A stretch of 37,002 bases of DNA. Origin: Escherichia coli. Its GTDB lineage: Bacteria > Pseudomonadota > Gammaproteobacteria > Enterobacterales > Enterobacteriaceae. The stretch lies in assembly GCF_003334815.1 (NCBI RefSeq), contig NZ_QOWO01000037.1. The stretch is one strand, 5' to 3'. Below the pieces are notes generated by a model that saw nothing but the letters and a program-made list of their open reading frames with translations, did no database searches and had not been told where the DNA came from. A program made the translations under genes and the position numbers. This document shows positions 22,221 to 22,369 of the stretch, piece by piece. Every line of letters starts with the position of its first letter. Within the stretch, counting starts at the first letter, position 1.

Positions 22221-22369
22221 ACAAAAACCTTACATTAACGCTGGTTATGTTTAGGGTGGCGTATATTAAGGTTTTTTATGAATTGTGACAGCTTTTTACC
22301 ATTAATAGGTATGACTATTGCGGCACGTTATTTTTACACTGGTTATAAAAGTTGCCGTTTGCTGAAGGA

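Follow-up and report, generated by a model that had tools for sequence, protein, structure and literature searches.

The short inverted repeat between cusS and nfrB of Escherichia coli most likely forms, on the mRNA strand, a predicted helix in the nfrB leader that sequesters the ribosome-binding site. Its downstream arm is the Shine-Dalgarno and start region of nfrB, which is the main point that had been missed when the repeat was first described from the letters of the DNA (referred to below as the sequence-only reading). The locus itself is most likely an ordinary AT-rich operon boundary that holds the ribosome-binding site of the nfrBA-ybcH operon and, as its sequence predicts, most probably also a weak promoter of the sigma-70 type for that operon.

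The analysed stretch (the window: 37,002 nucleotides of an E. coli chromosome) carries on its minus strand, in this order, cusR (23802-24485), cusS, a gap of 149 nt, nfrB and nfrA. The gene boundaries bear out the gap at the length originally claimed (22221-22369): cusS ends with a TAA stop at 22372-22370 and nfrB begins with a GTG codon at 22220-22218, both on the minus strand, the latter being fixed by the N-termini of orthologues from more than 20 genera, which align there. The gap is AT-rich, as had also been claimed (35% G+C vs roughly 50-59% in the adjacent coding sequence), and in the genome of the window it forms the 3' flank of cusS and the 5' flank of nfrB at once. The features that are referred to in the following are:

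19983 to 22220, minus strand: nfrB coding sequence, 745 aa, GTG start

22216 to 22232, minus strand: downstream (3') helix arm, composed of UAAGG, the U5 spacer and the GUG start

22233 to 22266, minus strand: helix loop, 34 nt, rich in C and poor in G, containing a weak inner stem of 4 bp

22267 to 22282, minus strand: upstream (5') helix arm, with a perfect core at 22267-22276 (AAAAACCUUA) and an extension to 22282 that includes G-U pairs

22262 to 22293, minus strand: conserved 32-nt block AGCTGTCACAATTCATAAAAAACCTTAATATA, 26/32 identical in Citrobacter amalonaticus

22243 to 22320, minus strand: transcript stretch with more C than G (C/G ratio 3.17, above the 99th percentile of the window)

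22321 to 22357, minus strand: weak hairpin just past the cusS stop, no U tract

22221 to 22369, minus strand: cusS-nfrB intergenic gap, 149 nt, 34.9% G+C

22363 to 22388, unstranded: segment specific to the island-free arrangement, 26 nt, comprising the last cusS codons, the stop and 7 nt beyond

22370 to 23812, minus strand: cusS coding sequence, 480 aa per RefSeq annotation

The repeat had been described as 9 bp long, at about 22225-22233 and 22266-22274, with a loop of about 30 nt. It does exist, one base away from that position and one base pair longer: the arms are AAAAACCTTA (22223-22232) and TAAGGTTTTT (22267-22276), complementary at 10/10 positions, with 34 nt between them. When 22200-22390 was shuffled 2000 times with dinucleotides preserved, 1.7% of the shuffles contained a perfect repeat of at least 10 bp with a loop of at most 60 nt, and six such repeats are present across the 37-kb window; the inverted repeat is uncommon by chance, not extraordinary. 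Other perfect inverted repeats of 10-11 bp are located at 6336-6359, 26626-26667, 27794-27864 and 35044-35086. Upon folding of both strands a stable structure was found on the minus strand (z -3.0 to -3.6) and a weaker one on the plus strand (z -2.4). The minus-strand RNA of 22221-22280 folds at -12.9 kcal/mol (z -3.6, with 0/200 shuffles as good) and that of 22215-22285 at -16.8 kcal/mol (z -3.0, again 0/200), the latter with 16 pairs and one bulge. The Shine-Dalgarno sequence UAAGG (22232-22228, 7 nt before the GUG at 22220) and the start codon both lie inside this helix, where the first G of the GUG is bulged and its U and G are paired (22220-22218).

The consequence for the ribosome site was evaluated by folding. 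The site (-14 to +3, in the context -80 to +30) has an unpaired probability of 0.145, which makes it the most closed among the 23 genes of the window (0.20-0.64 for the others) and places it below 99.5% of random positions. The openness of the Shine-Dalgarno sequence was calculated to be 0.00-0.02 in all RNAs that include the upstream arm (5' ends at 22400, 22369, 22323 and 22290) and 0.32 in an RNA with its 5' end at 22257; in the folding model, the helix sharply separates short-leader from long-leader RNA. For the long leaders the low openness was unchanged in silico at 20, 28, 37 and 42 degrees C, and this flat response implies that there is no thermometer behaviour in silico; an RNA thermometer was rejected as a candidate, as no melting of the Shine-Dalgarno helix was predicted between 20 and 42 degrees C. 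A search of Rfam with 21500-23000 yielded nothing relevant, the sole match being a chance hit to ALIL (E = 5.5).

The sequence-only reading held that the gap must contain both the terminator of cusS and the promoter of nfrB. The former claim was not supported: no intrinsic terminator was found after cusS in either arrangement of the locus (for the second arrangement, see below). The terminator scan gave none on either strand within 21900-22700, none near the gap when 16000-25000 was scanned, and none after cusS in the arrangement with an island. The repeat was rejected as an intrinsic terminator of cusS on the basis of its core, in which 2/10 pairs are G-C, and its 34-nt loop. That it is no canonical terminator had been rightly seen, given the AU-rich stem, the 34-nt loop and the paired U run; the U-rich tract that was said to follow the stem on the minus strand was misplaced, as the five U are a paired part of the downstream arm and the helix is followed by GUGUGGAC, i.e. 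the nfrB start codon and coding sequence. The hairpin just past the cusS stop was also discarded as a terminator (z -0.8 against shuffles, no U tract, and an outer stem that is broken in E. whittamii). A 22-nt direct repeat (22227-22248/22325-22346, ATAACCAGYGT… on the minus strand) has one copy that runs into the Shine-Dalgarno sequence and the other in this hairpin. The C-rich, G-poor part of the leader is, by its composition, a possible candidate for a Rho loading region.

A promoter of nfrB within the gap is probable. This part of the claim is favoured by a candidate site that scores 8/12, by the block that is kept in C. amalonaticus and by the 142 nt that stay with nfrB, and it is opposed by the standard promoter scan, which found no site inside the cusS-nfrB gap. 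The best sigma-70-like site on the minus strand consists of CTGTCA (22291-22286), a 17-nt spacer and TAATAT (22268-22263); with 8/12 it falls below the cut-off of the standard scan (9/12), and the start site predicted from it lies at about 22257-22255. As a positive control the same scan recovered the cusR promoter at 24538-24511, which is matched by the promoter sequence that Kim 2012 gives for the cusR start site, and this agreement indicates that the scan was working. The upstream arm (22276-22267) coincides with the end of the spacer and the first two bases of the -10 element of the candidate. The 32-nt block is the sole significant local similarity between the E. coli gap and the region upstream of nfrB in C. 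amalonaticus (alignment score 20 vs 10.0 ± 1.5, with 0/1000 shuffles as high); it ends 41 nt before the start codon in E. coli vs 40 nt in C. amalonaticus, where nfrB is preceded by a gene other than cusS. Most probably, judged by its sequence, the block represents a candidate weak sigma-70 promoter. Of the six differences within the block in C. amalonaticus, three hit the part that pairs with the Shine-Dalgarno region in E. coli; since the ribosome site of C. amalonaticus is different as well, the block is conserved and the hairpin is not.

Other promoter evidence was collected for the same region. A SELEX peak of RNA polymerase holoenzyme at 592452, which corresponds to about position 22271 of the window via the cusS coordinates (Shimada 2017, PMC5493296), was obtained with the sigma-32 holoenzyme and lies barely over the cut-off (3.2 vs 3.0; PMC5493296). 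Scans with the sigma-32, sigma-24 and sigma-54 consensus sequences gave no convincing match. An alternative promoter-like site is present at 22358-22330 (7/12 with TG), with the extended -10-like TGTAAAAAT at 22338-22330. For the sigma-28 consensus TAAAGTTT-N11-GCCGATAA the best match within the gap is only 10/16; one of 11/16 is found in the 3' end of cusS (22398/22378), and a perfect -10 element GCCGATAA is found inside cusS, on the minus strand at 22843-22836, some 620 nt upstream of nfrB, in a site (22836-22862) with an 11-nt spacer and a poor -35 element (TATGCTGT). Sigma-28 matches of at least 12/16 number 19 per 74 kb, i.e. the match inside cusS occurs at chance frequency, and motifs of this quality precede nfrB in 6/77 orthologues, which is about the chance expectation. 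A different upstream block, TATGATACCGGTAACAT, was observed about 70-110 nt before nfrB in Buttiauxella, Cedecea and Enterobacter sp. Ag1 (loci L018, L021-L026 and L034); in Buttiauxella agrestis and B. izardii it is located within a sigma-28-like match TAAATTCT-N11-ACCGGTAA (12/16). For Izhakiella (L012, -67) the sigma-28 match reaches 13/16 and includes a perfect GCCGATAA. As to published transcript ends: there is no nfrB start site among those tabulated by Kim 2012; the plus-strand part of the Cappable-seq table holds no plus-strand start site at about 592200-592699 (U00096.2), an interval that spans the gap; the data of Yan 2018 and Cho 2014 provided no useful nfrB start site or cusS 3' end; the supplements of Adams 2021 have no entry for cusS or nfrB; and cusS, nfrB, nfrA and ybcH all go unmentioned in the main text of the FliA ChIP-seq study (PMC4183435).

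The genomic context of the gap varies within E. coli. The contiguous arrangement of cusS and the gap was recovered in 2326/5426 complete genomes, and therefore the idea that the gap doubles as the 3' region of cusS is valid for the genome of the window and for just that number of genomes. In about half of the complete genomes an island of 10.5 kb separates cusS from the nfrB upstream region. This island encodes VgrG, a DcrB-like protein and an Rhs core protein, the last of which is followed by small ORFs, as well as an ISAs1 transposase that is co-directional with nfrB. The island is present in ATCC 8739, O157:H7 and many others, after a diverged cusS end and abutting position 22362 (23878-34375 in the comparison locus L003), and the cusS C-terminus reads …VIMLPERE* with the island vs …VITLPA* in the arrangement of the window. 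The rhs loci paper of Jackson et al. 2009 is said to mention nfrB. The stretch 22221-22362 (142 nt) was found upstream of nfrB in 5004 genomes (at least 95% identity) and it stays attached to nfrB where the island splits off cusS. Because these 142 nt travel with nfrB, they functionally belong to nfrB rather than to cusS. In E. coli X14-3 (L088, about 2545-3300) an IS1 has entered the helix loop some 24 nt before nfrB begins, and nfrB is also annotated there as a pseudogene with an internal stop. With respect to the protein, residue 37 of NfrB is Asn in the window (22112, minus-strand codon AAT) and Asp in K-12 BW25113 and ATCC 8739, as well as in 62/62 orthologues with a matchable motif; this codon is the only difference from BW25113 across 22100-22500, and some natural isolates (e.g. 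strain 52F4) are identical to the window over the residue-37 stretch.

The conservation of the helix was inspected in the relatives that could be used for covariation, i.e. E. coli, E. whittamii and C. amalonaticus only. Among the sampled E. coli alleles the arms are invariant except in MS6198, where one C of the upstream arm is replaced by U, a change that preserves pairing (as G-U) in the minus-strand RNA only; since the whole gap is at least 95% identical within E. coli, this invariance is uninformative. E. whittamii has the island-free junction and carries two substitutions in the spacer between Shine-Dalgarno sequence and start codon that weaken the stem (z -0.96). The pairing is kept only in Escherichia; C. 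amalonaticus lacks it, and so do 22 other genera, whose nfrB ribosome site is open (0.21-0.70). Apart from the one G-U-compatible SNP, no compensatory changes were found in the sampled relatives, and the lack of conservation of the hairpin outside Escherichia means that there is no covariation support. When metagenomes were scanned for variants of the block from outside E. coli, none turned up, and a protein-based route led only to a distant Plesiomonas-like locus and a Shigella copy with identical arms.

Published expression data concern both the operon and its possible connection to cusRS. The nfrBA-ybcH operon is expressed at a low level and after exponential phase (Junkermeier and Hengge 2021, PMC8669469), and expression of nfrB increased 2-fold from 28 to 37 degrees C and depended on FlhDC/FliA (PMC8669469). 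The nfrB::lacZ fusion that was used there was made at the start codon (GTG to ATG) with a fragment from -1499 to +0, which corresponds to window positions 23719-22221 (PMC8669469) and takes in most of cusS, both helix arms and the sigma-28 match inside cusS. As this fragment has both arms, the reporter leaves the promoter unlocalised and reads leader effects together with promoter activity. RNA-seq of silver-adapted strains with a constitutive cusS R15L allele (PMC11510482) showed that nfrB was up without silver in all five strains (logFC 1.6-2.8; Table 2). In the presence of silver its mRNA increased in the four evolved strains (1.9-3.7) and decreased in the single mutant (-2.4). The rise was parallel to that of cusA, cusB and pheP. 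The four evolved strains also have rho mutations (PMC11510482); because of these mutations and the inconsistent single mutant, the evidence from the co-rise is weak. The co-rise suggests read-through from both cus operons into their neighbours, rather than efficient termination. On the other side of the locus, pheP (window 30774-32326), downstream of cusA, was up in the same study (PMC11510482), which suggests read-through there too, and just past the pheP stop, at 32294-32326, a perfect inverted repeat (14 bp, loop of 5 nt) looks like the real terminator of that unit.

Our preferred explanation, which we put forward tentatively and at somewhat less than even confidence, combines a leader helix that sequesters the ribosome-binding site of nfrB, a promoter of nfrB itself that fires downstream of the upstream arm, and the absence of a cusRS terminator. 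RNA from a promoter near 22257 would start inside the loop and lack the upstream arm, and its ribosome site would be comparatively open. RNA that enters from upstream, be it by cusRS read-through, by transcription of the ISAs1/Rhs island in other strains or from a promoter inside cusS, would have both arms and its ribosome site would close almost completely; its untranslated, C-rich and G-poor leader would then be a good substrate for Rho, and overall the translation of nfrB would be shielded from transcription that originates elsewhere. What we infer here comprises the start site, whether read-through RNA exists and what becomes of it, and any selected function. Evidence against this explanation includes the weak consensus score of the promoter, the sigma-32 origin of the SELEX peak, the lack of the hairpin outside Escherichia and the confounded read-through data; in addition, each arm has a separate reason to be conserved, namely the promoter for the one and the ribosome site for the other. 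Nearly as likely, and itself doubtful, is that the complementarity is a by-product without a selected function and that nfrB is just weakly expressed from a poor promoter: an A-run and CCTTA in the promoter spacer would happen to match the TAAGG and T-run of an AU-rich ribosome-binding site. This fits a 10-bp repeat that arises in about 2% of the shuffles and has six counterparts in the 37-kb window, an AT-rich region with homopolymer runs in both arms, the absence of the repeat from C. amalonaticus and other genera, the two stem-weakening substitutions (z -0.96) that E. whittamii tolerates, and the at least 95% identity of the gap within E. coli, by which arm invariance says nothing. It fits less well that the repeat is positioned exactly on the Shine-Dalgarno sequence and the start codon, and that the nfrB site is the most closed of the 23 genes and below 99.5% of random positions. 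Moreover, the 16-bp helix (-16.8 kcal/mol) is predicted to form in any RNA with both arms, so that some effect on long transcripts would be hard to avoid.

The helix could also be a constitutive leader element, which we consider rather unlikely: the true start would then be upstream of 22282, either from TGTAAAAAT at 22338-22330 or from the sigma-28 -10 element GCCGATAA at 22843-22836 inside cusS, all nfrB mRNA would have both arms with translation held low, and opening might come via temperature, a small RNA or a protein. The low expression of nfrB and the FlhDC/FliA dependence and 2-fold increase at 37 vs 28 degrees C of the lacZ fusion with both arms (PMC8669469) speak for it, as do the alternative promoter-like site at 22358-22330 (7/12 with TG) and the perfect sigma-28 -10 match within cusS; that match is at chance frequency (19 of at least 12/16 per 74 kb), the main text of the FliA ChIP-seq study is silent on cusS, nfrB, nfrA and ybcH (PMC4183435), a promoter inside cusS would be 10.5 kb off in the genomes with the island, warming from 20 to 42 degrees C leaves the predicted openness of the Shine-Dalgarno sequence at 0.01, and it is the block conserved in Citrobacter, at a fixed distance from the start, that looks like a promoter. 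Two further possibilities appear very improbable. An element that acts as DNA, either an inverted repeat bound by a dimeric regulator or a looping pair involving the 22-nt direct repeat, would agree with the presence of a perfect repeat in duplex DNA and with the 17/22 match of the direct repeats, 98 nt apart, which was matched or exceeded in 2/100 shuffles; for a dimer the 34-nt spacing of 10-bp half-sites is unusual, the half-sites are not conserved in C. amalonaticus, and no regulator of the cusS-nfrB gap was found in the literature examined. Least credible of all is a cusRS terminator, or an attenuator before nfrB, notwithstanding a location downstream of cusS on the correct strand, five U in an arm and an A-run before the stem. 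With 2/10 G-C core pairs, a 34-nt loop and a U run that is paired in the stem and followed by GUGUGG, the structure fails the scan on both strands; its end falls on the nfrB start codon, past the promoter candidates, in about half of the E. coli genomes this sequence is found 10.5 kb away from cusS, and nfrB mRNA rises together with the cus genes in the constitutive cusS strains (PMC11510482).

NfrB is the synthase of the glycan that serves as phage N4 receptor, and cusRS is induced by copper and silver. If the helix works as inferred, a weakly expressed operon for an exopolysaccharide and phage receptor under c-di-GMP control would stay unaffected by a strongly inducible neighbour from which no terminator separates it, a leader effect would be added to the nfrB::lacZ activity that was published as pure promoter activity, and mutations in the arms would provide a simple handle on N4 receptor levels. 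That the helix is a fold-back insulator that was selected as such, uncoupling NfrB synthesis from cusRS or ISAs1/Rhs-island transcription and passing the read-through RNA on to Rho, we regard as an improbable extension of the preferred explanation; if true, metal stress would leave N4 sensitivity and motility unchanged, and the locus would provide a chromosomal, non-transposon example of the device of IS10/IS50. Otherwise, this is an ordinary operon boundary, and in either case the terminator reading is corrected.

Several known systems resemble the arrangement in part. Like an intrinsic terminator, the nfrB stem-loop is located on the transcribed strand past a stop codon, with an A-run before it and U's at its 3' side; unlike one, it has an AU-rich stem, a 34-nt loop and U's inside the stem, and it sits on the start codon of the next gene. 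The likeness to Rho-dependent polarity is one of composition, the leader being C-rich and G-poor (C/G 3.17); in addition, a closed ribosome site would leave the read-through RNA untranslated. Leaders and thermometers that sequester a ribosome-binding site (fourU, ROSE) resemble nfrB in two respects: its Shine-Dalgarno sequence and start codon form part of an AU-rich helix that includes a U run, and its published start-codon fusion shows 2-fold higher expression at 37 vs 28 degrees C (PMC8669469). They differ in that the anti-Shine-Dalgarno sequence of nfrB is the canonical CCUUA and not UUUU or a ROSE motif, and in that its 16-bp helix has no predicted melting at 20-42 degrees C and matches no Rfam family. 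In IS10 and IS50 the transposase promoter fires between or within the arms of an inverted repeat, and only read-through RNA has both arms and is translationally silent. This fold-back inhibition, which protects the transposase gene from outside transcription, was reportedly described by Davis, Simons and Kleckner in 1985 and by Krebs/Schulz and Reznikoff. The nfrB case differs in that it concerns a chromosomal polysaccharide-synthase operon and not a transposase, with a start site that is predicted only and a long loop (34 nt); what it shares with IS10 and IS50 is an inverted repeat with the downstream arm placed over the ribosome-binding site. By analogy with fold-back inhibition, the predicted nfrB promoter would fire from within or between the arms.
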